This document shows, piece after piece, positions 2,828-52,686 of a DNA stretch of 64,000 nucleotides. The position numbers and the translations under genes were made by a program. This DNA comes from a bacterium (lineage in GTDB: Bacteria; UBA8248), in NCBI GenBank assembly GCA_965203325.1, contig OZ241875.1:2784001-2848000 (forward strand), in the 5' to 3' direction. Numbering within the stretch: the stretch's first letter is position 1; every line of letters starts with the position of its first letter. Below the pieces are notes generated by a model. That model searched no databases and was not told where the DNA came from. It was given only the letters and a program-made list of their open reading frames with translations.

Positions 2828-3330
2828 TGAAAATTGCTGGTTCACCTCGGGCAAATTTCCTTTTTTGGTTGTTGTTCATCTCATTTGCATCAATCGCAGG
2901 CTTACTTTTGTTCTTTTCGAAACCACTATTTCTTTCCAAAGCAGGCGTCAAAGCGTCCTTGGCAGCAGAAGCAAAGAAGTTGAGAGGAATGCCTCCAGAG
3001 GCCATAACAAAAAACGTAGGTCATATTCTCAAGAAATACCTGGATTCTTCAAAGCATACCAGTCGTGCCGATGTTCGCGTCTCCGAGATAGCCCCTGAGA
3101 GATTGTCTGTTGACATTCTGTTGCCATGGGCGGAGGTGAGCGCAAAAAAAAGAAGACAAAGAGCAGAGTTGGTCTGCCGTTTGGGCGGCGGCATGCTTGA
3201 GAATGCGGGAGCAAAAGATACAATTTTTTCGGTTAATATCCTTCGCATGACGAGAGACGCGACTGCCAGCGAGCGTGCAGGTGCGATGGTGTATTCTCCA
3301 AAAGATAAAAAATGTACTTGGAAAGAATAG
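2827..3330 (+). CDS. Hypothetical protein with N-terminal membrane anchor
   Basis: Hydrophobic FLFWLLFISFASIAGLLLFF; start overlaps the upstream stop (TGATG). Confidence 0.6.
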   Translation: MKIAGSPRANFLFWLLFISFASIAGLLLFFSKPLFLSKAGVKASLAAEAKKLRGMPPEAITKNVGHILKKYLDSSKHTSRADVRVSEIAPERLSVDILLPWAEVSAKKRRQRAELVCRLGGGMLENAGAKDTIFSVNILRMTRDATASERAGAMVYSPKDKKCTWKE

Positions 3331-3462
3331 TTAATTCGGAAAGCCAGTCACATCTGAAGCCAAATACATCAAATGCCGACGGCTTTTCTCTGAAAAGCCC
3401 CATTTCTGCTAGACTCTGTTTATTTTGGTTATTTCATTTTTCGGGCGAGAGGAGGTGTTCAC

Positions 3463-4362
3463 ATGTCCCTTACAACCGTTGCCATCATCAGCCCGGGAGA
3501 TATGGGACATGCTGTGGGGCGAATGCTGGGTTTGCATGGGCTTGAGGTAATAACTTGTCTTGCAAACAGAAGCGAGCGGACGAAGCAATTGGCCGCGAAA
3601 GGGGGTATTCGGGATTATCCGACAAAGGCTGAAATGCTGGAGCGCGCGGATATTGTTTTGTCCATCGTGCCTCCGGGTTTAGCCGCTCAGGCGGCGGACG
3701 AAGTGGCGGAATCTATGTCGAACTCTGGTTTTTGTCCCCCGTATGCGGACTGCAATGCTGTATCACCCGAAACGGCAAAAGCAATGGCAAAGAGGATTTC
3801 AGATGCCGGAGCGGATTTCATCGATGGGGGGATACTGGGTCCCCCGCCGAATGAGACACGGAACAACACAAGGTTTTACTTCAGCGGTGCGCAGGCGGGA
3901 TTGCTCTCGGAATTGGACGGAAAAGGAATCATCGTTCGTCAGCTTGGGCCAGAGATTGGCCACGCTTCTGGAATCAAGATGTGTTACGCCGCTCTTACGA
4001 AAGGAACCCATGCTCTTCAAACCGCGGTCATTACTCTGGCAGAGGCGCTTGGTCTCTCCGAGGAAGTGAATCGTGAGTTTCAAACAAGCCAGGACGCTTC
4101 TTATAAACAAATAACCTCGAGTGCCCCCCGTCTTCCCGTCGTGGCGTGGCGGTATATCGACGAGATGAAACAAATCGCACAGACCTTTGAGGCCGCCGGC
4201 GTCACTCCGAAGTTTCATGAAGGAGCTGCGGCCGTCTATTCCCATCTCGCGACAACGCCTTTAGCGGAGCAAACCGTAGAGACGATTGACAAGAGCTTAT
4301 CTCCACAGCAAGCGGCGGCGGTGTATGCTGAACACTTGCCGATGAAAATGGACGACATTTGA
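3463..4362 (+). CDS. NAD(P)-dependent oxidoreductase, 6PGD/HIBADH-like (DUF1932-type C-terminus)
   Basis: SPGDMGHAVG, DCNAVSP, DGGILGPPP, IKMCYAALTKG; GGAGG RBS. Confidence 0.85.
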   Translation: MSLTTVAIISPGDMGHAVGRMLGLHGLEVITCLANRSERTKQLAAKGGIRDYPTKAEMLERADIVLSIVPPGLAAQAADEVAESMSNSGFCPPYADCNAVSPETAKAMAKRISDAGADFIDGGILGPPPNETRNNTRFYFSGAQAGLLSELDGKGIIVRQLGPEIGHASGIKMCYAALTKGTHALQTAVITLAEALGLSEEVNREFQTSQDASYKQITSSAPRLPVVAWRYIDEMKQIAQTFEAAGVTPKFHEGAAAVYSHLATTPLAEQTVETIDKSLSPQQAAAVYAEHLPMKMDDI

Positions 4363-6995: not shown

Positions 6996-7004
6996 GGAGC
7001 GGTT

Positions 7005-7092
7005 GTGGCGCATGTAACGGCGGATGCCGTCGTCATAGGTGGTGGTGTGAAGGGAAGTTCCATCAGCCTATCAGTTGGCGAAACGAGGATGA
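7005..7092 (+). pseudogene. Remnant of an FAD-dependent oxidoreductase (DAO/sarcosine-oxidase-like N-terminus)
   Basis: AAGGAG RBS, then GTG and MAHVTADAVVIGGGVKGSSI; a +1 frameshift gives AYQLAKRG, then TGA. Confidence 0.7.
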
Positions 7093-32803: not shown

Positions 32804-33193
32804 TTATTGGGGGATGAACGCGAGCAGTTCGATTTCGAGTTTCGCGCCCGCGATGATTTTCGCCGCCTGAAACGTCGTTCGCGCCGGGGGGTCTTCCGTC
32901 CCGAAGTACTCCTCGAACACGGCATTCATTTCCCCCAGATCCGCCAGATCTTCCATGAAAATGGTCACTTTTACGGCGTTTTTGAGCGCCGTGCCGCCCG
33001 CCTCGCAAACCGCCTTGAGATTCTCGATGACTTGGCGCGTCTGCTCGGCCACGCCGCCCGGGACGAGTTCCCCCGTCTTAGGGTCGAGGGGCAGCTGCCC
33101 CGAGCAGTGAAGCCACTCCCCCACCTGAACCGCCTGTGAGAGCGGCACCTTGCCCGATGCGGCCTTGTCCGTATGAACCACTCTTTTCTTCAT
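32804..33193 (-). CDS. RidA/YjgF family enamine deaminase
   Basis: SQAV, SGQLPLDP, PPART, EIE; AGGAG RBS. Confidence 0.88.
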   Translation of the reverse strand: MKKRVVHTDKAASGKVPLSQAVQVGEWLHCSGQLPLDPKTGELVPGGVAEQTRQVIENLKAVCEAGGTALKNAVKVTIFMEDLADLGEMNAVFEEYFGTEDPPARTTFQAAKIIAGAKLEIELLAFIPQ

Positions 33194-33347
33194 GATCGCT
33201 CCTGTGCGCCTGAAGCGTGACGCCCCATCAAAACACAAAATGAGGCCCGTGGGTATCTTTCGCGGGGTTTTTCGGCATCCAAAAGGTAACCTTATATTTA
33301 TCAGTCAGTTAGATCGCATCCCCTCCGCTCTCGGGGCGAGGCTCCCC

Positions 33348-33590
33348 CGCAATTGCCCGCATTTGCCGTTATCGCGTGAGGCGCGAGCATGGCAGAATTC
33401 CCCTGCGCCGCGACCCGGCTGCGTCATTTCCCGAGAATTTAATTTTCATTTATTTATCGAAAAACATCGGGAATTTATCTGATTTTATCGAATTTTTCAG
33501 AAATTCCATCGGCGCCGAACGAGCCGCCCGGCTCCGCCGTCACACCGGAATCCCCCGAACCCGCGCGAACGGCAAATGCGCGAGATTGCG
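33348..33590. repeat. 29-bp imperfect inverted repeat around an AT-rich core
   Basis: CGCATTTGCCGTT (33358-33370) versus AACGGCAAATGCG (33568-33580), with further matching flanks. Confidence 0.6.
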
Positions 33591-33745
33591 CGCGCGGACT
33601 TCCGGCGAAACGCAACCGATCACCCCTTCCCGCCTCGGCGCCGTCTCTCACAAAAAACTGGCCCCCCGCCGCCACGTTGTGTTATCTTGCTATCTTGGTT
33701 GGCGAGATGTTTTTCAACAGCCTATCACGAGGGAGGACTCAAATC

Positions 33746-34738
33746 ATGGCAGGAGTACGCCATCGGCAGCATCCCTTCGACACCGATTTCCATCTCACCC
33801 CCGAGCACAAGGAGCAATTCCGGCGCGACGGCTTCGTCAAACTGGAAGGGTTCTACAACTCTGAAGTGGTCGAGACGCTGCTTGCTCGTGTCGAAGCCGA
33901 AATGGACCGGGGGGAGGCCGACAGTTTCAAGGCCGATGCAATGTTCAATCGAGCGAAGTATGACTTCGCAGGCGAAATGGGCGACGTCTATGAACTGCTG
34001 GAACGGCCTTACTTGCGAAGGACTCTTACGGATCTGGTCGAATGCGATCTCTTTTTGACTTTCGAGCAGTGCTTTGAAGTCGAAAAGAACGTCAGCAAGG
34101 GGTTTCCCTGGCATGTCGGCGCGCAGAGCTTCGGCTTTCAACCCGCGGAAGAATTCGCGTGCACGCTGTGGGGGCCGCTGCATCCCGTGGATACGAAGGG
34201 CCAGCGGGGCGGGATGGCTTATGTCCCCGATCATGTCATATCGGGCGATTTCATCTTCCACCAGATCGAGCCGGCGATTGTCTCGACGCTGGAGGCCAAG
34301 GAGCAAGCCGGCGTCAGGACGAACGTAAATGAATATTTCGACATGCGTTCGGGGATCCTCAATTCACCGACCATGTGCGAGATACTCGAGAACCACCAGG
34401 TCGAAGACGATTTCGAGCCCGGCGACGCGCTCCTGTTCAACAAAATGGTCGTCCACCGAAGCATCATGCTCGGTGAGGGTGCGCTTCCCAGGCGCGCCGC
34501 CTACGTGATGCGTTTTATCGATGCGGGCTCGCACTACGATCTGGAGCGGGCGCGGATGCTCGAATTCCCCGTGGAAATGTACGGAAAGGGGTTCTTCCCG
34601 TATAAACCTTTCACCCGTCAGCACATCGAGATCGCGGAAGCCGGAGCGAGCGACGGCGACCTTCTCGCGGAATGCGCCTTTTTCGACGAACGTGATCGCC
34701 GCACGATCCGGCGCGAACGCTCTCTCCAGGCCGGTTGA
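33746..34738 (+). CDS. PhyH-fold Fe(II)/2OG enzyme with H-x-G, candidate halogenase 1
   Basis: EQFRRDGFVKL, PWHVG, PGDALLF..VVHRS, RRAAY; GGAGG RBS. Confidence 0.8.
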   Translation: MAGVRHRQHPFDTDFHLTPEHKEQFRRDGFVKLEGFYNSEVVETLLARVEAEMDRGEADSFKADAMFNRAKYDFAGEMGDVYELLERPYLRRTLTDLVECDLFLTFEQCFEVEKNVSKGFPWHVGAQSFGFQPAEEFACTLWGPLHPVDTKGQRGGMAYVPDHVISGDFIFHQIEPAIVSTLEAKEQAGVRTNVNEYFDMRSGILNSPTMCEILENHQVEDDFEPGDALLFNKMVVHRSIMLGEGALPRRAAYVMRFIDAGSHYDLERARMLEFPVEMYGKGFFPYKPFTRQHIEIAEAGASDGDLLAECAFFDERDRRTIRRERSLQAG

Positions 34739-34767
34739 ATATCGCCGGCGGAAACGCGCAGGAGGAC

Positions 34768-35781
34768 ATGATGAACAGCCATCCTTTCGACAACGAGTTC
34801 CTCATCACCCCGGAGCAGAAGGAGCAATTCCGGCGCGACGGTTTCGTCAAACTGGAAGGGTTCTTGAACGATAACGTGGTGGAGGCGCTTCTGAATCGTG
34901 TCGAAGTCGAATTGAGCGGAGAAGGGGCCACCAACTTCAACAAATCTCGTTCAGCGGAGCTTCTCGACATACGAACGACGTATGACTTCGAGATCGATAA
35001 ATCGGAAGTCTATGAACTGATGGAACGGCCTTATTTCCGGCGGGCTCTGACGGATCTGGCCGAATGCGATCTCTTTCTGACTGCCGAGTTGTGCTTTGAA
35101 ATCGAAAAGAACGTCAGCAAGGGGCTCCCCTGGCATGTCGGCGTGCAGAGTTTCGGCTTTCAGCCCGCTGAGGAATTCGCGTGCACCATTTGGGCGCCGC
35201 TGCATCCCGTGGATACGAAGGGCCAGCGGGGTGGAATGGCTTATGTCCCCCAGAACGTCATATCGGGCGATTTCGTCTTCCGCCAGATCGAGCCGGCGGT
35301 TGTCTCGACGCTGGAGGCCAAGGAGCGCGCCGGGGTCAGGACGAACGTAAATGAGTACTTCGCCATGCGCGAAGGAATCCTCAATTCGCCGACCATGTGC
35401 GAGATACTCGAGAACCACCAGGTCGAAGACGATTTCGCGCCCGGCGACGCGCTCCTGTTCAACAAGATGGTCGTCCACCGCAGCATCATGCTCGGGGAGG
35501 GAGCGCTCCCCAGGCGCGCCGCCTACGCGATGCGCTTTGTGGATGTTGGGTCGCACTACGATCTTGAGCGGGCGAAAAACCTCGAATACCCCGCGGAACA
35601 GTACGGGAAGGGGTTCTTCCCGTATAAACCGATTACCCGTTTCCACATTGAAATCGCGGAAGCCGGAGCGCGCGACGGAGACGTTCTCGCGGAATGCGCC
35701 TTTTTCGATAACCGAGAGCGCCGCACGATGCGGCGCGAACGGGACTTTCGACCTGAATCAAAGGAGCGCGTGGAACGATGA
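34768..35781 (+). CDS. PhyH-fold Fe(II)/2OG enzyme with H-x-G, candidate halogenase 2 (tandem paralog)
   Basis: Same motifs; long near-identical DNA stretches shared with gene 1. Confidence 0.8.
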   Translation: MMNSHPFDNEFLITPEQKEQFRRDGFVKLEGFLNDNVVEALLNRVEVELSGEGATNFNKSRSAELLDIRTTYDFEIDKSEVYELMERPYFRRALTDLAECDLFLTAELCFEIEKNVSKGLPWHVGVQSFGFQPAEEFACTIWAPLHPVDTKGQRGGMAYVPQNVISGDFVFRQIEPAVVSTLEAKERAGVRTNVNEYFAMREGILNSPTMCEILENHQVEDDFAPGDALLFNKMVVHRSIMLGEGALPRRAAYAMRFVDVGSHYDLERAKNLEYPAEQYGKGFFPYKPITRFHIEIAEAGARDGDVLAECAFFDNRERRTMRRERDFRPESKERVER

Positions 35782-36965
35782 AACACGACCGTCAGATGGC
35801 GTTGCTCGACAGAATGCTTGAACTCCGCGGGCGACGCGAAGACCAAACGATTTACGACAAGGTCTTGCATCTGCCCCTGGACGCCTATACCAGCCAGGAG
35901 GTCTTCGAACGCGAGCTCGAGACGTTGTTTTTCGACAGCCCGCTCGTAGCCGGGCACATGGACGGCGTTCGTGAGCCTGGCAGTTACATGCTCAGCGACT
36001 GGACGCGACAGCCGTATTTCGTTGTCCGGGGCGAAGACGGCGTCCTTCGGGCATTTCTCAACACCTGCCGCCATCGGGGCGCGCCGCTTATTGTCAGGGA
36101 GAAAGACGAACCGCTGCGGGCGCTGGTTTGCCCGTTTCACGGGTGGACATATGGCCTGGACGGCGCACTGCGGGGTATTCCGCGATCATTCGGCTTTCCT
36201 GACATCGACAAGCGGGACTACGGCCTGAAAGCGTGTTCGGTGGCGGAAAGCGCGGGATTGGTATGGGTTCACCCGACCCGGCAGGAATCGTTCGATCCGG
36301 CGCAGGAACTGGGCGCTTTCGCGGAAGATTTCGCGGAGTTCCGTCTTGAGCGTTTTGTCAGCCACCGAAGGGTCGTGACGGAGAAAAAGGCCAACTGGAA
36401 GCTTCTTATTCAAATGAACCTGGAAGGCTACCACGTTGCGCATCTGCACAAAGGAACCCTGGCTCCGAATTTCCGCGAAGGTTTTTTTTCTCACGACGCG
36501 GAGGGGCCTCATCTGCGCGTTATGGCAGCACAAACGAACTTGCCTGATGCGGAAAACGTCCCGGAGAAACAGAGAAAGCTTATCGACTTCGTAACGCTTT
36601 TTTATGTTCTGTTCCCCAACACGATTTTCATTGTGCGCAAAGACACTATTTTAATCAGCAGGTTCTTGCCGCTGGCCCCGGATCGAACGCTCTGCTCGCA
36701 GGAACTGCTCTATCTTCCCGATAAATACGTCGGGGAGTCGGGGCAGAAAGCGTTGCGCAACCGCCTCCTCTACGCGGAAGTCACTATGGACGACGAAGAT
36801 TACACGATGGCGGAACGGATCCAGGCCAACCTGCTGAACGGAGTGAACGAAACCCACATGCTGGGTCTCGAGGAAGGGCTCGTGATGGTGTTTCAGGAGA
36901 TAGTCAGCAAGAGGTTGGCCGCACGGGAGTCCGCGACCGCAGACAGCTCCCGGCGAGGTTGTTGA
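35778..36965 (+). CDS. Rieske non-heme iron oxygenase alpha subunit
   Basis: CRH...CPFH Rieske motif, NWK, EGYHVAHLH, DED; ATGA overlap with the upstream gene. Confidence 0.9.
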   Translation: MKHDRQMALLDRMLELRGRREDQTIYDKVLHLPLDAYTSQEVFERELETLFFDSPLVAGHMDGVREPGSYMLSDWTRQPYFVVRGEDGVLRAFLNTCRHRGAPLIVREKDEPLRALVCPFHGWTYGLDGALRGIPRSFGFPDIDKRDYGLKACSVAESAGLVWVHPTRQESFDPAQELGAFAEDFAEFRLERFVSHRRVVTEKKANWKLLIQMNLEGYHVAHLHKGTLAPNFREGFFSHDAEGPHLRVMAAQTNLPDAENVPEKQRKLIDFVTLFYVLFPNTIFIVRKDTILISRFLPLAPDRTLCSQELLYLPDKYVGESGQKALRNRLLYAEVTMDDEDYTMAERIQANLLNGVNETHMLGLEEGLVMVFQEIVSKRLAARESATADSSRRGC

Positions 36966-37257
36966 CCGCCCCTTGACTTGAAAAGCACCCCCCCCTACCC
37001 CCCCCCTTAACAGGGGGGTAAAAGCAGCGCCCCCTGACGAAGGTTTGACTCATCCGATGAAAGAGCAAGATACACTCCCCCCACCGACTCGCTTGCGGGC
37101 TTCGCCCTTACCTCGTCGACTCCCCCTCAAGGGGGGAGTGAATAAAATTCTTCTCGGTGGAAAGAAGGTCCTCCCGACAGGGGGGAATAAAAAAGACCCC
37201 CCTGACAAGGGGGGGTAGGGGGGGTTGCTCTTTTGAAAAAGGCTTTTTCAACAGTCC
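36957..37257. mobile_element. MITE/REP-like nested palindromic element
   Basis: Ends GGTTGTTGA / TCAACAGTCC; inner C-rich and G-rich inverted arms (about 36981-37018 versus 37197-37234); central ACTCCCCCTCAAGGGGGGAGT hairpin. Confidence 0.6.
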
Positions 37258-37269
37258 TTCGCGCGCGGC

Positions 37270-38169
37270 CTAGCGAATTCCGTGGCTTGCCAGGTATTCC
37301 CGGACCATCGCGGCGCACTCCTCCGGCTTTTCCACCTGCAGGAAGTGCGAAGCCTCGGGCACGAAGTCGTAGTCGACAGCCGTTGCGTGACTCAGGTCGA
37401 AAGTCGGCAGGTACGCGAAGGGCAGCGTGGGATCAGCACCGATGACCTTCGTCGGGCAGGTCAGTATCGTCAGATCCAGCAAAGGCGAGAAGCTCCTCAC
37501 ATATTCCGCGATCTGGGCCTCGTAATCGCGCGGGCAGCGGAGTTCGTAAGCCTCTCCGTCGGCGCTCTTGCGAAGGGTCGACCGCGCTATGAGATCGCGC
37601 ACCCCCGGTAAGACGCGGTTGTATCCGGGAACGATGGCGAGGATTTCGGCTAACTGCTCCCGGCTCTCGAACCGATCCGCCCGCTTCCGGGTCATCGCCG
37701 CTATCCGTTCCGCCGCAGCGTCCCATTCCGCCTCTCTCCCGGCGGGTTTGCACAGCGGCGGATCGAACAGAACCAGCGCGGAATAGGCGTCGGTGAAGGA
37801 GAGGAGCGTCACAAGCGTCGAAAGGGAATGAAACACGCCCACGGTCGGTTTTTCGCCGTATTCCCGGACGATGGCGTCGAGTATGAGGTCATGGTCGGAA
37901 ATCAGCGCCGGAATGTTGTGATCCCGCTGCGCGCCGACGCTGTTCCAGCCATGGTTCCTGAGGTCGTAGACCATCAGGTCGAAATCGTCGGCGAGCAGCG
38001 ACCAGAACGGATAATAGGGATCGACCGCGAGACCGTTGCCGTGGGTCAGGACGAGCCGGGAACCTGCCGGATTGCCGTGTCGCCGCACCGTGGCCATAGC
38101 GTGTTCATCGAGTCGAACCTCGCACGTCGAAACGGGCTTGGGTATCGTCCAATGCGCTTCTTGCGCCAT
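37270..38169 (-). CDS. Alpha/beta hydrolase (SupD-like)
   Basis: HGNG, DLRNHG, FHSLS nucleophile elbow, SHFLQ. Confidence 0.85.
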   Translation of the reverse strand: MAQEAHWTIPKPVSTCEVRLDEHAMATVRRHGNPAGSRLVLTHGNGLAVDPYYPFWSLLADDFDLMVYDLRNHGWNSVGAQRDHNIPALISDHDLILDAIVREYGEKPTVGVFHSLSTLVTLLSFTDAYSALVLFDPPLCKPAGREAEWDAAAERIAAMTRKRADRFESREQLAEILAIVPGYNRVLPGVRDLIARSTLRKSADGEAYELRCPRDYEAQIAEYVRSFSPLLDLTILTCPTKVIGADPTLPFAYLPTFDLSHATAVDYDFVPEASHFLQVEKPEECAAMVREYLASHGIR

Positions 38170-38210
38170 ATCCGAAGGCCTGGCTGCGCTCGAGCGTCGA
38201 GGAACGCCGA

Positions 38211-38438
38211 TCAGCCGCGCGCGTCGATATGATCTGCAAGTTCCTGCAAAGTCTGGAACTTCGAGAAGTCCTCTATGGCCAACCCGAGGCCGAACTCCTC
38301 GTTGACGAGTTTGAAGAAGGCAACCGCCTCCATCGAGGTAACCTCTATTTCGCCGAGCTGGGCGTTGAAATCCGGCTCATGGCCGATGTCGAAACTGCTC
38401 GCGATGATCTTCTTGATGCGATCCTGTGTTGCCGACAT
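38211..38438 (-). CDS. Free-standing acyl carrier protein (second SupB-like copy)
   Basis: 75 aa, LGEIEVTSMEAV, EEFGL, TLQEL; AAGGAG RBS. Confidence 0.8.
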   Translation of the reverse strand: MSATQDRIKKIIASSFDIGHEPDFNAQLGEIEVTSMEAVAFFKLVNEEFGLGLAIEDFSKFQTLQELADHIDARG

Positions 38439-38665: not shown

Positions 38666-40396
38666 CTATGGCGCTTCCATGCGGACGGTCACGATGTCCA
38701 CTCCGTGGTATTGCTGGTGGCGAACCGAAGCCGCGAGATCACGCAAAAGCCGGAGCGACACCTCCTGCTCGAGGTGGGCTTCTTCCGTCTGCTCGCCGAG
38801 AAGCGCGACCTGATCCTCGAGGTTCCCTCCCTCGCCTGCCGCGGCGATGAACTCCAGAACGGCTGCGCCGCCGTCTTTTTTCGCGAGCAATACCACCCGT
38901 CGTCCGCTTTGCTCCCCATCCTTGTCTGGCCCGATCAGCGTCAGTAAGACTTCCTCGCAGACGCCGCCCAGACGCCTCGCCATCCCCTCATCCCAGTTGT
39001 ACGTGGAGGCGAACTCGCCGAGAAACTCCCTGAGCTCCGGCAGGGACGAGGTGTCGAGCGCCGTTTCCATCCGGGCGGGGCGGGGTTCGGTGATCTCCAC
39101 GAACAGGGTCATGACGATGGCGACGAGGCCGCCGGCCGTCATCCCGTTGTTCATCAGGCCGCCCGCGAATTCCGAGAAAAACTCCGGGAAGACAACCCCG
39201 CTCTGAAAAGCCACGCCGAGCCAGAACGAGACGCCGACGATCAGGCTCTTGCGGTAGTCGATCCCGTCCTGAACGATCATCTGCACGCCGATCATGAAGA
39301 GGATCGCCATCATCACGACGAGATAGGCGGCGAAGACCGGTCCCGGTATCGCCAGCACCAGGGCGAGCGCTTTAGGCAAAAACGCCAGCGCCGCGAACAT
39401 CGCGCCTGCGGCGATCCCGACGTGGCGGGCGGCGACTCCGGTGAGCTGGGTCAGGGATGCGCCCGTCGTATAGGACGTGTTCGGCACCGTTCCCGCCAGG
39501 CCGGAGAGCAGGTTGCTCAGAGCGTCGGTTGCCACCGCGCCCTGCACCGCCCGGAAATCCACCGCCCGGGGCCGGCGCCAGGAGACGCGCTGAGCGGCGG
39601 CGGCGCTGCTGATCGTCCGGATGGCGCCGATGGTGGCCGCCAGCAGGAACCCGGGAAGAAGCGACCAGAAAAGCGGCCCGAAGCCGAGATCGAGGCCCGG
39701 CCATTCGACCGAAGGCAGTCCGGCCCAGGCGGCCTCCGCGACGCGGGCCGTGTCGTAAATGCCGAAAAAGACGGCGACGAGCGATCCAGCGAGAATGCCG
39801 ATAACAGGCGCCCAGAGGCGAAGCGAGCCCGACGCCTTGAGGGTGAGGCCGCAGATGACGAGCACGGTCGCCAGAGCGCTCAGCGGAGCGCCCGGGGCCG
39901 GGCTGCCCTCCGGCACGTCCTTGAGCAGATTGAGGACGGGCGACATCACCGAAACGGGAATCAGCATGAGCACCGTGCCCGAGACGGCCGGGGTCAGGAT
40001 CCGCCGGAACAGCAAGAGTCTATCGGATATGACGAACTGAAAGAGCGCCGAGACGACGACCAGGGTGGCAAAGGTAGCGGGTCCTCCCTCGGCGAGCGCC
40101 TGAATGGATACTGCGATGAAGGCCCCCGAACTGCCCATCATGAGCACATGACCCATCCCGAAACGCCCGAGACGGAGTGCCTGGAGCATCGTGGCCCCGC
40201 CTCCGATAACGACGGCGGCGAACACGGCCCACGAGAGATAGGCTTCGCCTTGGCCGGCGGCCCGCATCACGACCGTCGTGAGCAAAATCGTGGCGGATAC
40301 GCTGAGTGCGGTGAGCTGCAGACCCAGGCCGAGGGAGATGGCGAGCGGTGGTTTTTCGTCGGCCTGGTAGCGGAGGCCGGAATCGTTCGCACTCAT
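38666..40396 (-). CDS. NCS2 (xanthine/uracil) permease with extra C-terminal domain (SupE-like)
   Basis: GLQ, GSSGAF, PNTSY, TGVAAR, PK and AIPGPV motifs; about 140-aa soluble tail. Confidence 0.85.
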   Translation of the reverse strand: MSANDSGLRYQADEKPPLAISLGLGLQLTALSVSATILLTTVVMRAAGQGEAYLSWAVFAAVVIGGGATMLQALRLGRFGMGHVLMMGSSGAFIAVSIQALAEGGPATFATLVVVSALFQFVISDRLLLFRRILTPAVSGTVLMLIPVSVMSPVLNLLKDVPEGSPAPGAPLSALATVLVICGLTLKASGSLRLWAPVIGILAGSLVAVFFGIYDTARVAEAAWAGLPSVEWPGLDLGFGPLFWSLLPGFLLAATIGAIRTISSAAAAQRVSWRRPRAVDFRAVQGAVATDALSNLLSGLAGTVPNTSYTTGASLTQLTGVAARHVGIAAGAMFAALAFLPKALALVLAIPGPVFAAYLVVMMAILFMIGVQMIVQDGIDYRKSLIVGVSFWLGVAFQSGVVFPEFFSEFAGGLMNNGMTAGGLVAIVMTLFVEITEPRPARMETALDTSSLPELREFLGEFASTYNWDEGMARRLGGVCEEVLLTLIGPDKDGEQSGRRVVLLAKKDGGAAVLEFIAAAGEGGNLEDQVALLGEQTEEAHLEQEVSLRLLRDLAASVRHQQYHGVDIVTVRMEAP

Positions 40397-40656
40397 GGCG
40401 CAACCGATGTCCTGAAAACACCGAACGCCCGCTCGACGAAACGGAAACGGCGCAGCACTTGAAGAATTCTCGTTTGGTCAACTCGTTCGAAGGGATAGCC
40501 CGCACCATAATCCGTCATAGACAAATCCCTCGTATCGCGAGTGAATCCATGGCTGAAAGGAACTGTTGAACAACCCCTCAAACCGCCGTCTTCCATGCGA
40601 ATTTCATGGGCGGAGAGCGGTTCGGGTATTTCCCGGACTTTTTCCGAAATCGTCAT
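40393..40656 (-). pseudogene. Truncated alpha/beta hydrolase (SupD-like remnant)
   Basis: EIPEPLSAHEIRMEDG matches TIPKPVSTCEVRLDE of 37270..38169, after which similarity is lost. Confidence 0.6.
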
Positions 40657-41393
40657 CGAGCCCCCTCGTTCTCTCCTCGAATGAACGCCTGGTCCGATTC
40701 ATAAGCGATGGCGGCGGCGAAATTTTCGTTCCCCAGATTTTCGAGTCTCCACTCGACTTTCGGTATCCAGGGAAACTGGAACATGCCCTTTCTCGCGCCG
40801 CGCCGTATGGCCTGTGGCACCTCGAACCGGGACGGATCCAGGGAAAACCCCGTGCCCAGAGCCTTTATCAGCGCCTCCTTGAGCGTCCAGAGCGTGAAGA
40901 ACAAGTGAAACTTTTCTCGTCCATGCGTCACTGCGAAGTCGGCTTGTTCGTCCGGACCAAACACGAACTCGCTAATCCCGTCGAGATCGAGGCGGTCGAC
41001 GCGTTCTTCCACGTCCACGCCGAGCCGTCCTCGAGGCGCAAGCGCAACCAGTCCATGTTTGCCGCTGTGAGATACGTTGAAGCTGACGGGAGCCGCTATC
41101 CCGTCCACAAGTGCGAACGGCTTTCCGTGTTCGGAAGCGCCGAACGCGAGTCGTTCGTTCCCGCAACCGAGCCGGCAGCAGAGAATGGAGCGCAACGCCG
41201 CGCGGCACAAGGCGAATTCACGCTTGGGGCGTTCATATTTATATCGCCGCCATCGTGACCGCTCTTCCTCATCTAGCCACGTCAAAGCGTACGCCTCGCG
41301 CTCCTCATGGGGTGTCAGGTCGACATGTATGACGAGAATATCGTCTATTTCACGGAACGTGTGAAACCAGGAATCGACAACCTCAGCAGCCAT
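40653..41393 (-). CDS. Sfp-type 4'-phosphopantetheinyl transferase (SupC-like)
   Basis: GKP, FNVSHS, GVDVE, WTLKEALIKALG. Confidence 0.92.
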   Translation of the reverse strand: MAAEVVDSWFHTFREIDDILVIHVDLTPHEEREAYALTWLDEEERSRWRRYKYERPKREFALCRAALRSILCCRLGCGNERLAFGASEHGKPFALVDGIAAPVSFNVSHSGKHGLVALAPRGRLGVDVEERVDRLDLDGISEFVFGPDEQADFAVTHGREKFHLFFTLWTLKEALIKALGTGFSLDPSRFEVPQAIRRGARKGMFQFPWIPKVEWRLENLGNENFAAAIAYESDQAFIRGENEGAR

Positions 41394-41887: not shown

Positions 41888-44800
41888 TCAAGGTGCCTCG
41901 AACCAGAAGCGACGGCGTTGGAACGGGTAGCCCGGCAGCGAAATCCGCCGCCTCTCCTCTCCGGCGAACAGCCCGGCGAAGTCGAGCGTGAGTCCCGCCT
42001 CATACGTCCGCGCAACCGCCTCGACAAACCCGACGCCTCTCTCAGACGTCCGGTTCAGGCTCGAAAGCACCACAGGCGGCGCGGCGCCGTTTTCGCTGGC
42101 TCCTGCGTCGCCTGAAAGATCGGGCCAGGCCGAGAGCACCTGCGGGACGAACGCTGCATCCGGCCCGATCTCCACGACGACCTCTACGCCCGATTCCGCG
42201 AGCGTCTTGGCGCATCCTTCGAACGCCGCCGGTTCGCTCGCCTGTCGTCGCCAATATGCCCCATCCATGGTTTCACCCGAGTTGAGGGCCCGGCCCGTCA
42301 CCTGATTCACCAGCGTGAGCGAGGGCAGCGCCGTCACGACGCCCTCGAGCGCCGTTTCCAGATCGTACAGGGCCGCCTCGGCTCCTTCTTCTCTCGAGAC
42401 CGCCTCCATCAGCGCGCCGCGCCGCGCCGCGAAACGCAAGCCCTCCTCCAGCGTGAACACGCCCGCCGCATGCGCCGCCGCTATTTCTCCGGCTCTTGCG
42501 CCGAACACCACGTTCGGTCGAATCCCGATGCTCGACCAAAGCGCCGTGAGTGCGCACTCGAGCGCAAAAGCCGCAGGCTGCGCCCACGCCGGGTCGTCCA
42601 GTTCTCCTTCGCGGTCGAACATCACATCCAGCAGCGAAGCGCCGCGCTCCACCCGGAGCACTTCGTCGCAGCGGTCCAGCACCGCCCGCGCCACCGGCTC
42701 GCTCTCGTAGAGTTCTTGCCCCATGCCGGTCCGTATATCGTCCTCTCCGGCGTAGGCGAAGGCCACCCTCGCCGCCGTCTGCGGCTTCGGCAACTCGTCT
42801 GACTCCGCAAGCGCTCCCAATCCTTCCCGCAGCGACGCGGCGTCCTCGAAGGCGACCCCCGCGCGATGCGCGAAATGACTCCGCCCCACGGCCGCCGTCC
42901 ACGCCATGTCGGAAAGGAGCGGCTCTGCGGCCGCGCCCTCTGCGGAAAGTTCTCCAGCGCACTCATCCAGCCAGGAGAGATACCGCTCCGCCGACTCTCG
43001 AAGCGCATCGCCCGATTTGCCCGATAGGGGCAGCAAACGCGTCCGGCGCGGGCGCAACCCCTCCGCCGCCTGAGACTTCGGGACCGAATCCGGCAGCGTT
43101 ACGGAGACGGGCTGCGCGGAACCTGCGGGGGAACCTCGCCCGGCCTCTGCGACTGAATCTTCCTCCGGCGCGCCGTAGCCCTCCACCAGGACGTGCGCGT
43201 TCGTGCCCGAAAGCGCAAAAGCGCTCACCCCCGCCCGGCGCGGACGATCGGATACGAGCGGCCAGGCCGTCGCCTCGGACGTCACCCGCACCGGAAGCGC
43301 ATCCCAATCCATGTGCGGGTTCGGATCATCGAAATGCAGGTGCTTGGGAATGACCCCATGCTTCATCGCCAGCAACACCTTGATCAGGCCGGCGATCCCC
43401 GCCGCCGACTCCAGGTGGCCGATGTTCGTCTTCACCGTGCCGAGCAGGAGAGGACGGTCCGGAGCGCGGTCGCGCCCGTACACCGCCGCCGACGCGCGCA
43501 CCTCGATGGGGTCGCCCAATTGCGACCCCGTCGCGTGTACTTCCAGATAATCCACCTCCGAGGGCGAAAAGCCGGACCGGGAAAGCGCATCCTCGAGCAC
43601 CTGTTCCTGAGCCGTGCCGTTCGGCACCGTCAGCGCGGCGCTCGCGCCGTTCTGGTTCACCGCCGAGCCCTGCACCAGACCCCAGATGCGGTCGCCGTCC
43701 GTCTCTGCGTCGCTCAGCCGCTTCATGACCACCATCCCGCAGCCTTCACCCCGCACGTAGCCGTCCGCGTCCGCATCGAAGGTCCGGCACCGACCGCTCG
43801 GCGACAACATCCCGAACTCCGCCATGAATTTCGAAACCGGAGGCGAGAGCACCGCGTGCACGCCTCCGGCGAGCGCCAGGTCTACCTCGCCCTCCCGAAG
43901 GGCTGCGGCCGCCTGGTGAACCGCCACCAGCGACGACGCGCAGGTCATGTCCAGCGGCACCGCCGGTCCCATCAGACCAAATGCAAAGGCGATCCGCCCG
44001 ATGGCCACGCTCGGCGCGTTGCCGATATGGCTGTCATCCAGGCCGCCGGCCACGACGAGGTCGCGGTACTCGCTGACGCCCAATCCGACATACGCACCGG
44101 TGCGAGTACCCTTGAGCGGCGCGGGGTCGATGCCTGCGTCCTCGAGCACCTGCCAGGTCGTCTCGAGCAACAGTCTTTGGCGCGGGTCCATCAAGCGCGC
44201 CTCGATCGGCCTGATGCCGAAAAACTTCGCGTCGAACTGGTCGATTCCTTCGATGAACCCGCCTTGCCGGTAGAAGTCTTTTTCGGCGGCGGGATCTCCG
44301 GCAACGCCGCCCCAGGGGCCGGTGCCCCGCCGACCGTCCGTCACCGCGTCGACGCCCGCTTCGAGCAGACGCCAGAAGGCGGCGATATCCGGCGCGCCCG
44401 GAAAGCGGCACGCCATGCCGACGACGGCAATCTGCTCCTCCTCGCGCCGCACCGCCGGCCGCCGCTCCGGTTCGGGTTGCGCCTGCGGGGCGGGCGCGGG
44501 TCCGACGTCACCGAGTTCTTCGGCCAGATGACGGGCGAGCACCGCGATGTCGGGATAGTCGAACACCACCGTGTTCGGGGCCGTGTAGGCGTCCGCGAAC
44601 GCGCGGTTCAGCCGGTTGCGGAGTTCCACGGCCATGAGCGAGTCCATGCCCAGATCGAAAAATCCCACCGTGGGCTCGGGCGCGCTCGGCAGCCGCAGCA
44701 CCGCCTGCAGTTCCTGCTGCAGGAACGAAACCAGCAGGCTCTCGCGCTCCGCAGCGGGCGTCTCCCCCAGACGGGCTATCAGGTCGTCCGCCAAGGCAGG

Positions 44801-47800
44801 GGAGTCGTCCTCTGCGTCTTGAGCGCGGGAAAGCAGGTCTTCGAAAAACGGGGGAATGTTATCCAGGGTCTTTTCGAAAACAGACCAATCCCTCGCCAGC
44901 ACCATGGAATTCGCGGCGTCCTCGCGGACCAGCCGGTCGAATGCCCTGAGTCCCTGCTGCGGTGTCATCCAGTCGATTCCGGTCGCCGTGATGCTTTGGG
45001 AGATCCGCTCCCGCTGTTCCGCCGCTTCGCCGATTTCCGACCACGCGCCCCAGGCGATGGCCTGTCCCGGGAGTCCCAACGCGCGCCGGTGCGCGGCAAG
45101 TTGATCCAGGAACGCGTTGGCCGCCGAGTGGTTCGACTGGCCCGGATTGCCGAGCACGCCGGCCGCGCTCGAGAAGAGGACGAACATGTCCAGATCGCGA
45201 TCCTCCGTCGCGCGGTGCAGATGCCACGCGCCCAGCACCTTCGGCCACAGCACCCCCTCGAACCGCTCCCAGCTCTGGTTCCCGAGCGCGCCGTCAGAAA
45301 GCACCCCCACGCTGTGGATCACGCCGCCCAAAGGCGGCAAATCCGCATCCATCCGCGCCAGCATTTCGTCCACCGCGTCCGGGTCCGTCACGTCCGCGAG
45401 TTCCACCCGGACCGTGAACCCGCGCTTTCGCAACGATTCAACCGCTTCTTCGACCTCGGGGTCCGGGGGCCGCCGCCCATTGAGCACGATAGCTCCGGCC
45501 CCCCGGTCCGCCAGCCAATCGGCCACGGCGCACCCGATGCCGCCCAGACCGCCGGTGACGAGGTAGGTCCTGTCCTCCCGCAACCGCCCCCTGGTGAGCG
45601 GTGAGTTCGTAAAGACGATCTTCCCGATGTGGCGTCCGTCGCGCATGAACTCGACGGCCCGCCGCGCCTCGGCCAGCGGCCACCTGGTGTGGATGAGCGG
45701 CGTCAGTTCTCCCGCCGCCAGCCGCGCCATGATGCCTTTGAGCAGCGCTCCCGGCCGCTCCGGCTCATCATCTTTCATGGCGTCGAGCTTCACGATGTGA
45801 TAGGTCACGTCCGGCCGTACGGCCGCCATCTCTTCTTCGCTCAGAATGTCGCGCGCTGCCAGTTCCACGAAACGGCCGCCTTGCGCCAGACACGACAGGC
45901 TCGCGTCGATGAAGCCCTCCGCCGTCAGGCTGTTCAGGATCAGGTCGACGCCTTCGCCGCCCGTGGCCTCGAGTATCTCCTCCCCGAATTTCGTCTGGCG
46001 GCTGTCGAACACGTGCGCCACGCCGAGCGAGCGGAGATACGCCTGTTTCGGCGCGCTCGCGGTTGCGAACACTTCCGCTCCCGCCGCCTGCGCCAACTGG
46101 ATGGCTGCCAGACCCACGCCGCCCGCGCCTGCGTGAATCAGCACCCGATCACCTGCTTTCAGCCCCGCGAGTTCGTAAGAGAGCGCTGCGGACAAGAACA
46201 CCGTCGGCATCGTGGCGAGCGCCGCGGCCGGCAAATCCGCCGGAGCGGGCGCCACCAACTCCTCATGCGTCACGGACTCCGGGCCGAACATGCCGCGCGC
46301 GCCGCGCTTCACGCCGACCACGCGGTCGCCCACCGAAACGCTCGACACCTCGGAGCCGACTTCGAGGATATGGCCGCACATCTCCGTGCCCAGGAATTTT
46401 TCGTCAATCAGACCGAGCGCCGCGAACACGTCCCAGAAGTTGAGCCCCGCGGCCTCGACCGCCACGCGGACTTCTCTCGGCTCAAGCGGCGGCGACTCCG
46501 CCTGCAGCCCACTGAGCGCGCCGTCTTCGTCGACCCCGAGCAGCCAGTCCGGCTCTTCGGGCAAGGTCAGCCGCTCCGCCCCCTCGCCGGCCCGGACAAG
46601 GCGGGCGACGCGGCGCCTGTTGCCGCGGTGGACGATCTGGTTTTCCGTATCGGGGTAGAGCAGTTCATTGGCGAGATCCACCGGCGGCGCCGTCGGCTCG
46701 GGGTCCAGATCGAGCATCTTCGGCTGCATTTGGGATGTTTCCCGGGCCAAAGCCTTACCGAACCCCCACAGCACCGCACCGGCAAGCTCTCCGCCGCGTT
46801 CGCGCTCCAGCACCTGCGCGCCCCGCGTGAGGAACCAGAATCCCTTCCCGGGCGCCGCATCGGCGTCGGACATGGCTTGCGCCAGCGCCAGTGCGCTCGC
46901 GCCCACCCGTTTCACGTCCTCCGCCATCTCCGCCGTCGTCGCACCCGGCCCGTGGCCGTCGAGTGCGGCGAGATGCACGACGCCGCTGAGCGGCGGATCT
47001 TCGGGCAGGCCCTCCAGCAGCGCGCCCCAGGATTCGCGGCTATCCATCTCAAGAGTCGTATGGATGACTCCGGATTTTTCATCCGCCGGACCCCCGTCCG
47101 CCGAACCCGCCTCGCTCGCCAGCACGACCGTCTGGTTGCGCGACGCCAACTCCTCCGCCAGTTCCTCGGCCGCACCGCCGCGGTCCGCCGCCAGAACCCA
47201 AGCACCTGGACGCTCGGCCACCTCCTCGGACAGCTGCGCCAGAATCACGCCCCTGTCCGGCATCTCGACGGAGTCACCCCAGCCCAGCCCGAGAATCTCC
47301 ACGCCCTCGAAACCCGCGGCATCGAGGGACTGCCGCCATACGTCCGGCCCCGCCAGGGCGTAGGTGGGGCGGCAATCGTCGGAGAACCGCCACCAGCCGT
47401 CCAGTTGCCCGAAAGTCATATCCAGCCAGTCCTGGCCGCAAAGGTTCTCGAGCGCCACGAGGTGCCCCGAGGGCGCGAGAAGACTCCTGCAGTGCGTCAG
47501 CGTCTCCTCCAGGTAGCGCGTGGCGTGCAGCACGTTGGACGCGATCACCAAGTCATAGCCGTGGGAGTCGAAGCCCTGCTCCACCGGGTCTTTTTCGATG
47601 TCCAGCACCCGGTACTCGATGCAGCCGCCGCCGTCGCCGAACAGCCCCTCCGCCTGCGCGAAGAAGCCCGCCGAGATGTCCGTGTAGGTGTAGTCGAACC
47701 GTCCTTCGGGAAGCTCGGGCAGGACGGATTCGGTCGCCGACCCTGTGCCCGCCCCGACCTCGATCACCCGCAGGCGCCGTCCATCGGGCAAGCCGGCCAC

Positions 47801-50800
47801 TAGGGTGCGTATCGCGTCTCTCAGCATCAGATTCGCCGCCCGCCACACCGGCGCTTTGAAGTAGAGGTCCGCGGCGCTGGGCTCTCCACTGCCGAACAGG
47901 AGCGAGAGCGGATCCTCCTCGCCGCGAAGCACTTCCGCCAGGGCGCCCGCGCTTCTGCGGAACAGCCCGATCTCGTTGGAAGCATAAGCGTATCGCTCGA
48001 TCACCCCGGCCGCGAACTCCTCGGGATCCCCCGGCATGCCTTCCGGCAAGGGCTCTCCGGCCCCTACAGCGACGAGGAAACCTTCGCCCTCCGACTTAAG
48101 AACGCCCACCCTCTCCAATAACTCGAGCATCCGGCGGAACAGTTGGCTGTGTTGATCTTGCACCCCCAGGCGCTCCCGCAAATCTTCCGAATCCACGGCC
48201 TCACCCGCCTTCCGCTCCCATCCGAGTTTCTCCAGGGCCGCGAGCGCAAAATGCCGCGCCATGCACGAGAGGTCCGCCAGCACGGCGGGCCTCATTTCGG
48301 CATCGACTCCTTCCGCCGCCAGATAGCTGGAGAACGGCTCCCATCGCTCCGCGACCTCCACCGGACTCGGGAGGAAATCCGCAGGCTGTATTCCCGGCGG
48401 CAGGGCGCTATCGCGCCACACGACCTCGTAGAGAAGGTCGTCCAGCCCTTCCACCGCAGAGAGCAGCGCCGCCCGCGTCGCGCGCTTCACCATGAACCCG
48501 CTCAACTCGCCGATCAGCGTCCCGTTCTCGTCGCAGAGAAGAAAATCCGCGACGAAGACCTCCTGCGATCCGCCCGTTTCGGCGTCCGGTTCCTGGCTCT
48601 TCGGAGCCTCCCGCATGCGCACGTGGCAGAGAAGCCTGTCCGGCAGCTTCTCCGCCAGCCACAGCCGCTCCCAGCCGAACGGCAGGTAGGTGATCCCGTC
48701 CTCGGCCCCGCCCGGATTGCGCGCCGCCCCCATCACCTGAGAGCAGCCGTCGAGCAGGAGCGGGTGCACGTCGAGGGCGTTTTCGCCTAAAGCCTCAGGC
48801 CAGCACACCTCGCCCAGCGCCTCGCCCGCCCGGGACCAGACCGACCCCAGTGTACGGAAAGACGGGCCGAGATCGATTCCCACGGCCGCCTTGGCGCGGT
48901 AATACGCCGGCACGTCCTCGGGCGAAAGAGCGGCTTTCAGGCTTTCCAAATCTATCTGCTCCGCGGATTGCCGTCCGCCCGCTTCTGAGGGCGCGCGGCA
49001 CTCCGCGTGCAGCGTCCAGCCCTCCTCGGCCTCTCCTTTGCTGAATATCCGGACGAGGCGCGAGGGCTCCTCCCCCGGCGCCTCGAGCAGAACCTGTACT
49101 TCCCGACCGTCGCCGCCGTTCTCTGAATCTTCTTCCCCGAAGATCAGCGCGTTGTGGAACTGCATCTCCTCGATGAGCATCGTCCCGCTTCCCTCGGCGG
49201 TGGACGCCGATATCGCCATCGCTCCGTAGAGCGCACCCGGCGCGATGACCCGGCCGAACACCCGGTGATCGTTCATCCACGCCGGATCAGACGGCAGCAC
49301 TTCGGTCTCGAAGGTGATCTCGCCGCCGGCGGACTCATGCCTCTCGCCCAAAAGCGGATGGCCTGCACTCTGCCGCCGCCGCTTCGGTCCCTCGACCCAG
49401 TAGCGTTCGCGCTGGAACGGATAGCCAGGGAGCGAGATGCGACGCCGGGTCTCCCCTGCGAACAATCCCTCGAAGGAAAGATCGACTCCGGCTTCATAGG
49501 CCCCAGCCACAGCGCTCATGAAGCCCGCTTCGAGCTCGTCCGCCGGTTTCTCCTCGTCTTGCGATGGTCTTTGCAGGCTCGACAATACGAGAGGAGCCTC
49601 GATGCCCACACCTGCGGCATCCGCACCTTCATCCGGACCCGGCCAGGTGAGAGACAGCATCGGGCCAAGCACCGCGTGCGGACCGACTTCCACCACCAGG
49701 TCGACGCCCAGATTCGCCAGCGCCCGGACGCCGAGGTCGAACGCCACCGCCTCGCGGGCATGCCGGCGCCAGTACGCTCCGCCGAGTATCTCGTCCGGTT
49801 CCACCACCCGGCCCGTCACGTTGCTCACCAGAGTCGTGAGCGAGGGCGGCGCAATCTCGATTCCTCCAAAAAGTTCTTCCAGCGCATCCAGAGCAGGCTC
49901 CACGAGGGGGCTGTGGAACGCCTGGCTCGTGTGGATCGGTCTCACCCGGACTTCTTCCGATTCGAAGCGCTCCGAGACCGCCTCGACCGCGGAGACCTGG
50001 CCGCTCAACACCTGGTGCGCCCCGTTTCTCGCCGCAATCGCAAGCCTCTCGCTCCCGGCCGCCTCGTTGTATTCACGCACCGCCGCTTCCACTCTTGTGT
50101 AGGGAGCGAAGACGGCCGCCATCGTCCCGGCTTCCGGGACTGATGAGAGTATCTCGCTCCGCCCCATGACGGCCCGCATCCCGTCTTCGAGCCCGAACAC
50201 GCCCGCCGTATGCGCCGCCCCGAACTCCCCGACGCTGTGGCCCACCACCACGTCCGGGCGAACCTCGAGGCTCGCCCAAAGCGCCGTAACCGCGCACTCG
50301 AGCGCGTAGATGGCCGGCTGCGCCCAGACCGTGTCGTAGAGGTCTCCCCCGCCGCGTCCGAACATCACGTCCAGAAGCGAGGCGCCTCTCTCCGCGCGAA
50401 CGACTTCTTCACAGCGAGCGAGAACCGCCCGCGCCACAGGTTCCGTCTCGTACAGGTCCCGCCCCATGCCGACCCACTGGCTTCCCTGCCCGGTGAAGAG
50501 GAAAGCGACCTTGGTCGTCGTTCGCGCCTCCGGCGCTTCAGCTCCTTCGGCCAGGGCGCTCAATCGCTCCCGTAGCCGCTTGGCGTCGCCGAAGAGGAGT
50601 CCCGCGCGGTGCGTGAAATGGCTCCGCCCCACGCCGGCCGTCCACGCCATGTCCGAGAGCAGCGGCTCCGAGGCGGCGCTTTGGGAAGCGAGTTCTTCGC
50701 CGCGCCCATCGAGCCAGGAGAGATACCGCCCGGCTAGGTCCCGAAGCGCGCCCTCGGACTTTCCCGAGAGCGGAAGGAGCCTTGTCTCGCGCTCGATGTG

Positions 50801-52264: not shown

Positions 52265-52686
52265 CAATTTCTCCCTCAAGTTCAGATTTCTCCCGGCAAA
52301 TACCCCGCCACGCCGTCATCACATCGCTCTGGAACGAATCCATCATATAGCGCACCCACAGGGCGGCTCAACAATTTTTTTCCCGGCTGAATAAATTGCC
52401 GATTAAAAGCGCCCGGCGGCAATGCTTCGGAAACGGTGATTGCGCTTCAGGTTTCCATGAAGTGCGCGGCGGGCCGGAGGTTCGTCTCTTGTTTTTCCCG
52501 ACAGGTCTTTTTTCTTCCTTCCTGTATTGGAACCCTGGCAAGGGGGCAGGGGAGTTGTTCTCGGGATGCGCGGAGATGCGCCGGGGCGGGTGGACGACAG
52601 TGGGTGTGATTTCGTGGAGGCAGGCTCTGGAATCACCCCTCCGTTCGCTCAAAGTGAAAAAAGGTTTCGAAAAGGCGAAAAACGGA

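Follow-up and report, generated by a model that had tools for sequence, protein, structure and literature searches.

The closest characterised relative of the genes described here is BtnX (Dshi_3684, UniProt A8LT50, PDB 9PV1/9Q04), which is encoded on the 'killer plasmid' of Dinoroseobacter shibae and was discovered by mining AlphaFold models for 2His-1Ala/Gly sites (PMC13489965, the source of the statements made here on the enzyme). Our subject is a tandem pair of BtnX-type genes, HalA and HalB, in 64,000 nucleotides of contig OZ241875.1 from a bacterium of the UBA8248 lineage; this whole stretch is called the window, and positions are numbered within it. The BtnX-type family is already published (Kipouros & Chang, Nature, July 2026), and the novelty of this locus is its genomic context, in which the pair stands beside a type I polyketide synthase (PKS) cassette. 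We hold it moderately probable that HalA and HalB alpha-halogenate (Cl/Br) a free carboxylic acid, likely a fatty acid made by this sup-type PKS rather than biotin.

BtnX turns biotin into 2R-chlorobiotin and also transfers Br- and N3-, and it alpha-chlorinates many free carboxylic acids having a 'propionate head group', including fatty acids such as octanoate (PMC13489965). Biotin is the proposed native substrate, with a Km < 2 uM. In the 1.20 A structure the iron site is of the 2His-1Gly kind with chloride bound, and Q119, S120, R248 and Y64 hold the substrate carboxylate. The G117D and G117E mutants are hydroxylases, and mutants of the S120/Y64 network lose chemoselectivity. The enzyme crystallises as a homodimer, with loop 50-57 disordered in one crystal chain. 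According to PMC8831719, btnX is a single gene in a plasmid operon with BioY and biotin-transporter genes of the energy-coupling factor (ECF) type (Dshi_3684-3687). HalA and HalB share with BtnX the 2His-1Gly site, the Y/Q/S/R network for carboxylate and 2-oxoglutarate (2OG), a free-standing form of ~310-340 aa and an origin in marine host-associated bacteria. They differ in being two diverged tandem chromosomal copies rather than one plasmid gene with biotin-transporter genes, and in being coupled to a Rieske oxygenase beside a PKS cassette without biotin genes. The proteins also differ from BtnX in 5- and 3-residue insertions near the C-terminus (GKGFFPYKP, AEA) and in the lid at residues 46-90.

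Other halogenases of this fold are more distant. The halogenase domain of CurA (CurA Hal, PDB 3NNF/3NNJ/3NNL), the cryptic chlorinase of curacin biosynthesis, resembles the pair in its PWHVG motif, distal His, Arg and PKS context. It differs in being a domain inside a PKS module with an acyl carrier protein (ACP)-bound substrate, in its ~20-25% identity to HalA and HalB, and in the carboxylate-binding Gln of BtnX, HalA and HalB, for which it has Gly. SyrB2, CmaB and BarB1/BarB2 have the same PhyH-like Fe/2OG fold, and Ala or Gly stands in for their carboxylate ligand; unlike in those systems, no stand-alone carrier protein or adenylation enzyme adjoins HalA and HalB. BarB1 and BarB2 are reportedly a precedent for two halogenases in one pathway.

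Sequence and iron site of the pair

Homologues of HalA and HalB, of which a search at E<=0.001 gave 284, are named 'phytanoyl-CoA dioxygenase family protein' in public records, and both proteins pass the PhyH Pfam model (PF05721; 36.3 bits for HalA and 30.6 for HalB, cut-off 22), just as the first-pass annotation had foreseen for automatic annotation. The H-x-D/E...H facial triad of the PhyH hydroxylases is replaced in both by H-V-G. In HalA, bases 34112-34120 read cat gtc ggc and encode H123-V124-G125; in HalB the same residues are encoded at 35134-35142, counting from the start at 34768. The PW-H-V-G that the first-pass annotation had placed at these positions is there in both proteins, and so are the distal His (VVHRS, H237) and the downstream Arg (PRRAAY, R256) to which it had pointed.

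By PDB sequence search, BtnX is the top solved relative (9pv1_A, identical in sequence to 9q04; E 1.2e-136, residues 7-323 against 4-309), and the CurA halogenase domain is second (E 7.5e-25). Over the full length, HalA is 66% and HalB 64-65% identical to BtnX, and tblastn against the D. shibae gene gives 66% and 64%. The AlphaFold model of HalA has a predicted local distance difference test score (pLDDT) of 81.3 and a predicted template-modelling score (pTM) of 0.83; confidence is low for residues 1-6, 56-68 and 328-330. Five chains of the CurA halogenase (TMq 0.68-0.72, E ~2e-18) lead its fold matches in a library of PDB entries up to 2026-04-08 from which 9PV1 was absent, and the next ones, at TMq <=0.55, are hydroxylases and epimerases. 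The NCBIfam model for 'chlorinating enzyme' of the SyrB2/CmaB type, TIGR01762, gives HalA 17.8 bits against a cut-off of 226.3 and has no match for HalB.

When BtnX was translated from the D. shibae plasmid and aligned with the pair, its Y64/H115/G117/Q119/S120/H229/R248 fell on Y72/H123/G125/Q127/S128/H237/R256, identical in HalA and HalB. Both proteins therefore have the 2His-1Gly iron site (H123, G125, H237) and the carboxylate/2OG network (Y72, Q127, S128, R256). That no other Asp/Glu would fill the third ligand site, a point raised in the first-pass annotation, is judged from the likeness in sequence to crystallised BtnX. Because all the named catalytic and carboxylate residues are kept at 64-66% identity to BtnX, we predict that each protein is a radical halogenase of the Fe(II)/2OG type.

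The Gly is also conserved in the family. Among 123 aligned sequences (the 120 best homologues with HalA, HalB and BtnX), the column of HalA G125 has G in 116, D in 5, E in 1 and C in 1, so that H-x-D, which the first-pass annotation had asked to be looked for among close homologues, is not the majority form. An exhaustive HMMER search of 1.84 billion cluster representatives (50% identity) finds a small family, with 167 representatives at E<=0.001 and 36 at E<=1e-30. In the 98 listed representatives that align His at 123, position 125 is G in 72, A in 1, D in 19 and E in 6. Judged by these alignments, the H-x-G of HalA and HalB is not a matter of chance, and the prediction that the two are halogenase-type Fe/2OG enzymes under a PhyH annotation is strongly supported.

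HalA and HalB are 78% identical across 311 residues. The ATG of HalA is preceded by a ribosome-binding site, GGGAGGA, and that of HalB by AGGAGG at 4 nt. Most of the divergence between them falls in residues ~38-88, with identities of 30-55% in 20-residue windows, against 75-100% in windows over residues 88-317. Identity at third codon positions is 0.58-0.73 in the first 90 codons and reaches 0.93 in the core, a pattern that would fit gene conversion of the catalytic core with a distinct N-terminal segment retained. The divergent segment holds Y72, the low-confidence loop 56-68 of the model and the counterpart of BtnX loop 50-57. Since the two proteins differ almost only in the lid next to the carboxylate-binding Tyr, they are likely to differ in substrate or in the face attacked, and not in chemistry. 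From the sequences, then, the paralogues likely take different substrates or different stereo-faces, or one takes the mono-halo product of the other on the way to an alpha,alpha-dihalo acid.

The PKS cassette and its relatives in other genomes

The pair, a Rieske oxygenase, a hydrolase, a permease, a phosphopantetheinyl transferase (PPTase) and the PKS all lie inside 18.5 kb (Table 1). The ATG of the Rieske gene (35778) overlaps the stop codon of HalB (ATGA), and the pair is translationally coupled to it. This oxygenase belongs to the alpha-only CntA/GbcA/Stc2 group, with a partial GbcA match; its nearest solved relatives are carnitine monooxygenase CntA and the stachydrine-demethylase group, at E ~1e-26. 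For the hydrolase, a PDB sequence search at E<=0.001 gave no solved relative.

Table 1. HalA, HalB and the genes of the adjoining cassette (positions in the window)
Feature	Position	Strand	Description
HalA	33746-34738	+	330 aa; BtnX-type Fe(II)/2OG radical halogenase paralogue A, predicted by homology
HalB	34768-35781	+	337 aa; BtnX-type halogenase paralogue B, predicted by homology
Rieske [2Fe-2S] non-haem-iron oxygenase, alpha-subunit-only type	35778-36965	+	395 aa; Pfam Rieske and Ring_hydroxyl_A
alpha/beta-fold hydrolase	37270-38169	-	299 aa; Pfam Abhydrolase_6; candidate chain-releasing thioesterase
NCS2/xanthine-uracil-type permease	38666-40396	-	576 aa; Pfam Xan_ur_permease at residues 24-396; SupE kind
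Sfp-type 4'-phosphopantetheinyl transferase	40653-41393	-	246 aa; Pfam ACPS and AASDHPPT_N
Type I PKS	41888-52279	-	3463 aa; KS-AT-DH-cMT-ER-KR-ACP-KS-AT0

Fieseler 2007 and Hochmuth 2010 are said to have described the sup PKS as a single module, KS-AT-DH-MT-ER-KR-ACP, and Fieseler et al. 2007 reportedly gave the sup clusters as comprising SupA-SupE. The same domain order is present in the PKS of the window and is followed by a second KS-AT0. This terminal KS-AT (41888-44480) is 57% identical to the first. Its AT has GARAGE where the first has GHSVGE, so that the active-site Ser is lost, and it also has a deletion; its KS keeps the Cys and has HATGS instead of HGTGT, and no ACP lies downstream. 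Homologues of 3400-3500 aa with the same domain set number in the thousands, in metagenome-assembled genomes (MAGs) of many phyla, and none of their source names contains 'SupA'.

We infer that the cluster is of the sup type from its domain set, its SupE-like permease and its habitat, the comparison being with descriptions of sup and not with the SupA sequence. On those descriptions the likeness would lie in a single fully reducing C-methylating PKS module accompanied by a SupE-kind permease, a PPTase and a hydrolase, in the sponge-metagenome habitat, and in homologues that are very abundant and diverse across phyla. The halogenase pair and the Rieske oxygenase would be additions to the sup plan. 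The name stands for 'sponge symbiont ubiquitous PKS', and in three papers its products are proposed, never shown, to be mid-chain methyl-branched fatty acids (PMC3908369, PMC4245539, PMC9864124). A 557-aa permease of a sponge fosmid is listed as a match to SupE (ABE03914) in Table 1 of PMC3908369. The permease of the window has a soluble C-terminal extension of ~140-180 aa beyond its Pfam domain, to which no family is assigned. Of the papers on sup clusters, the available part of PMC4245539 nowhere mentions 'halogen', 'dioxygenase' or 'phytanoyl', and that of PMC9864124 nowhere mentions 'halogenase'. By title and abstract we found no paper that links a BtnX-type halogenase to a sup cluster; the neighbourhoods in Supplementary Fig. 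2 of PMC13489965 may show some.

With one genome scanned per species, a relative was found at 21 loci, and we examined +-10 kb around each. Nearly all belong to MAGs from typically sponge-associated lineages. In 12/21 (L001, L002, L004, L006, L011, L012, L015, L016, L017, L018, L019, L020) a KS-AT homologue of the window PKS is present; the hosts of these are labelled Nitrospinota, Gemmatimonadota, Actinomycetota, Acidobacteriota and Pseudomonadota. The halogenase gene of L017-L020 points the same way as the PKS gene and is 369-759 bp from it. Two further loci, L003 and L005, stop at a contig edge; both have the Rieske gene and L005 also has the hydrolase. Hydrolase homologues (48-95% identity) occur near the halogenase in 11/21 loci (L001, L002, L004, L005, L006, L011, L012, L015, L016 and L017, with the own-genus sets), and the Rieske gene directly follows the halogenase or halogenases in L001-L006. 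In two gammaproteobacterial sponge MAGs with no nearby PKS (L009:6787-9570 and L010:7742-9479), the halogenase comes after a TauD-family dioxygenase and an EamA transporter, and L009 also carries a canonical PhyH protein.

The tandem HalA-HalB-Rieske arrangement itself is present in L001-L004 and in damaged form in L005, and L006 has one halogenase and the Rieske gene. L005 (807-7018, a Nitrospinota MAG) has its first halogenase copy divided between two reading frames and carries two copies of the Rieske gene, at 2837-4012 and 5852-7018, which may be an assembly artefact or a real rearrangement. In a maximum-likelihood tree of 30 rows, with the pseudogene L008 left out, the A copies and the B copies form separate clades (support 100/99 and 100/100), and the single-copy L006 groups with B (90/76). 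The ratio of nonsynonymous to synonymous substitution rates is 0.19-0.25 for HalA against 4 orthologues and 0.10-0.18 for HalB against 5. Both copies are maintained under purifying selection.

In the same tree, BtnX is sister to all 26 MAG sequences with 93/93 support, and plasmid homologues from Acinetobacter, Pantoea and Streptomyces fall outside. Phyla are intermixed inside shallow clades, which points to horizontal transfer. The carboxylate-binding Gln of BtnX is replaced by Glu in L006, by Arg in L011, and by Asp in the eight-member clade L013, L014, L016-L021. On this residue, the substrate head group may differ between the Gln-variant subclades. In relatives such as L016-L020 the Asp might restore a carboxylate ligand, which would not concern HalA and HalB with their Gln. 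Several of the Gln-variant halogenase genes adjoin the PKS directly.

Within the phylum of the window, a halogenase match is found in 9/51 genomes and a PKS match in 11/51, all of them in the genus of the window, and in that genus all seven genomes with an intact halogenase also have a PKS match. The genomes are closely related, and their counts cannot be treated as independent. One genome of the genus, G021 (its locus is L008), has no PKS match anywhere in an assembly that is 97% complete, and its halogenase is a remnant (L008:10001-10726) covering residues 8-250 with one in-frame TAG. The pattern in the genus fits an optional tailoring module that decays once the PKS is lost.

Parts of 33746-36965 are held in 20 run rows from 10 studies, mostly labelled sponge metagenome. 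Metatranscriptome contigs from two libraries of one study lie on HalA (33770-34276), on the Rieske gene and on the hydrolase gene, and one contig spans the HalA/HalB junction (34461-35312) with 28 differences. Over the upstream spacer 33382-33672 the two libraries give a depth of 0 and 1.07, and the DNA run of the same sample gives 226. Parts of the permease and PPTase genes have no cover from the RNA libraries, to which we attach no meaning. Since the libraries may contain DNA, the contigs give only a weak hint that HalA and HalB are transcribed. An Rfam scan of the whole window at the gathering threshold gave 0 matches and therefore no riboswitch upstream of HalA. In 33100-38300 there were 0 sigma-70-like promoter sites, and the 8 terminator-like sites are no excess over the 6.7 expected by chance.

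Proposed substrate and mechanism

The recurrent PKS context, together with the lack of a biotin transporter, makes a PKS-made fatty acid the likely substrate. In the scheme that we propose, the PKS, primed by the PPTase of the cluster, would assemble an acyl chain that is reduced and possibly methyl-branched, which the alpha/beta hydrolase would free as an acid, and HalA and HalB would then halogenate this free acid. By transfer from BtnX, H123 and H237 would hold Fe(II), G125 would leave the third iron site free for halide, and R256 with Q127, S128 and Y72 would hold 2OG and the substrate carboxylate. Cl-Fe(IV)=O would then abstract the C2 hydrogen and the halide would rebound. A further oxidation would fall to the coupled Rieske oxygenase, and export or import to the permease.

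A number of observations weigh against this reading. The halogenase activity of HalA and HalB is a prediction from sequence, and BtnX itself binds biotin with the low Km given above. In the window a distance of 5-6 kb and other genes separate the halogenases from the PKS, which is encoded on the other strand. Seven of the 21 loci have no PKS within +-10 kb (L007, L008, L009, L010, L013, L014, L021), and their contexts vary. The PKS label needs 7 changes on the tree, which means that the linkage is frequent and not obligate. Genome G018 lacks a halogenase although its PKS is orthologous (86% identity), and a second sup-like cassette in the genome of the window also lacks one. In that cassette (G000:C1:455000-468500), the PKS is 60%, the PPTase 70% and the hydrolase 58.5% identical to those of the window, the N-terminus of the permease persists as a fragment at 91%, and there is neither a halogenase nor a Rieske gene. 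These two cases make the halogenase an optional accessory. In other PKS-linked homologues the Gln position is D, E or R, so that head-group recognition is not uniform among them. Finally, all of the RNA evidence is from the one study, with libraries that may contain DNA.

The halogenases could instead work on the chain while it is tethered, HalA and then HalB acting on the PKS-ACP-bound chain in the manner of BarB1/BarB2 or of CurA, in which case halogenation might be cryptic and set up later chemistry. A one-ACP PKS and an Sfp-type PPTase are in the same cluster 5-6 kb away, CurA Hal is both the second sequence match and the top fold match, and in L017-L020 the halogenase gene abuts the PKS gene. 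We nevertheless consider tethered action unlikely, given 64-66% identity to BtnX versus only ~20-25% to CurA Hal, a free-carboxylate network (Y72/Q127/S128/R256) that is intact where CurA has Gly at the position of BtnX Q119, a TIGR01762 score far below its cut-off, and genes that are free-standing and not PKS domains. A complex prediction of HalA with the PKS ACP domain (residues 2508-2598) scored 0.01, a 'no answer' that counts neither for nor against binding. The first-pass annotation had inferred a two-enzyme chlorinase/brominase pair and had cited BarB1/BarB2, which act in sequence on a carrier-bound substrate. Its halogenase-type enzymes hold up, by the identity to BtnX and the 2His-1Gly site. 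The BarB1/BarB2 analogy is unsupported as it was written, because BtnX acts on free acids, HalA and HalB keep its Y/Q/S/R network, and TIGR01762 is so far from its cut-off.

Biotin would be the substrate if the pair made 2-chloro- or 2-bromobiotin as an antivitamin in a crowded sponge microbiome and the PKS neighbourhood were coincidental. The closest characterised enzyme has biotin as its proposed native substrate, all of its named binding residues are conserved in HalA and HalB, and within one habitat the family has reached several phyla, as might be expected of a trait that serves competition. Against this, Pfam scans of the 64-kb window gave no BioY/ECF or other biotin genes, and tblastn of the 4.39-Mb single-contig genome gave no BioY at E<=0.01 with the D. 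shibae BioY as the single query, which a distant BioY could escape. The six PKS-free loci scanned by Pfam (the seven without L014) have no biotin genes either, in contexts that varied. With PKS linkage at 12/21 loci and with BtnX sister to the 26 MAG sequences and not nested among them, we think the biotin explanation improbable. It is also conceivable that the proteins are not halogenases in vivo and catalyse mainly hydroxylation, desaturation or other radical chemistry despite H-x-G. Fe/2OG halogenases often yield some hydroxylation, the S120/Y64 network mutants of BtnX show how chemoselectivity can be lost, and D or E occurs naturally at the Gly position in 6/123 close homologues and 25/98 representatives. 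That the pair would not halogenate in vivo is very improbable in our estimate, as the residues on which chemoselectivity depends in BtnX (G125, S128 and Y72 here) are all retained, and Gly is present in 116/123 close homologues.

Surroundings and significance

Two features of the surrounding sequence are recorded here. Positions 1-32000 of the window, with ~8 kb before it, form a ~40-kb block with a guanine-plus-cytosine (GC) fraction of ~0.50, in a genome of GC 0.604 (standard deviation 0.043 over 5-kb windows). The genes of the block are ordinary ones and include nadA, nadC, two MatE, MscS, dnaN, pyridoxal-phosphate enzymes and a short-chain dehydrogenase/reductase. GC climbs to 0.58 at the halogenases and to 0.68 over the PKS. 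A ~260-bp element whose inverted ends are C-rich and G-rich lies in the spacer between the Rieske and hydrolase genes (36978-37237). Sections of the element, chiefly a ~65-nt core, have 340 blastn matches in the same genome, and its depth in sponge-metagenome contigs is 20-80x that of the flanks. It looks like an interspersed repeat of the kind of repetitive extragenic palindromes or miniature inverted-repeat transposable elements (REP/MITE-like).

Clusters of the sup PKS are, to our knowledge, dominant in sponge metagenomes, and the search for their product goes back to 2007. A promiscuous alpha-halogenase in a sup-type cluster predicts a halogen-tagged lipid, which is easily sought by mass spectrometry. 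As a tentative proposal, for which we would claim something short of even odds, the main natural job of the BtnX family would be the tailoring of the sup PKS lipid and not vitamin sabotage. The cassette would have spread by horizontal transfer among symbionts of sponges, in at least five phyla, and in this lineage a duplicated, lid-diverged pair with a Rieske oxygenase would make a lipid carrying two added functions, such as an alpha,alpha-dihalo or a halo-hydroxy methyl-branched fatty acid. Were this true, a halogen isotope signature would offer the first practical handle on the sup product. The locus also gives two natural lid variants of a biocatalytically attractive enzyme. For the family as a whole, the locus suggests that the ancestral substrate of the BtnX-type enzymes may have been something other than biotin.

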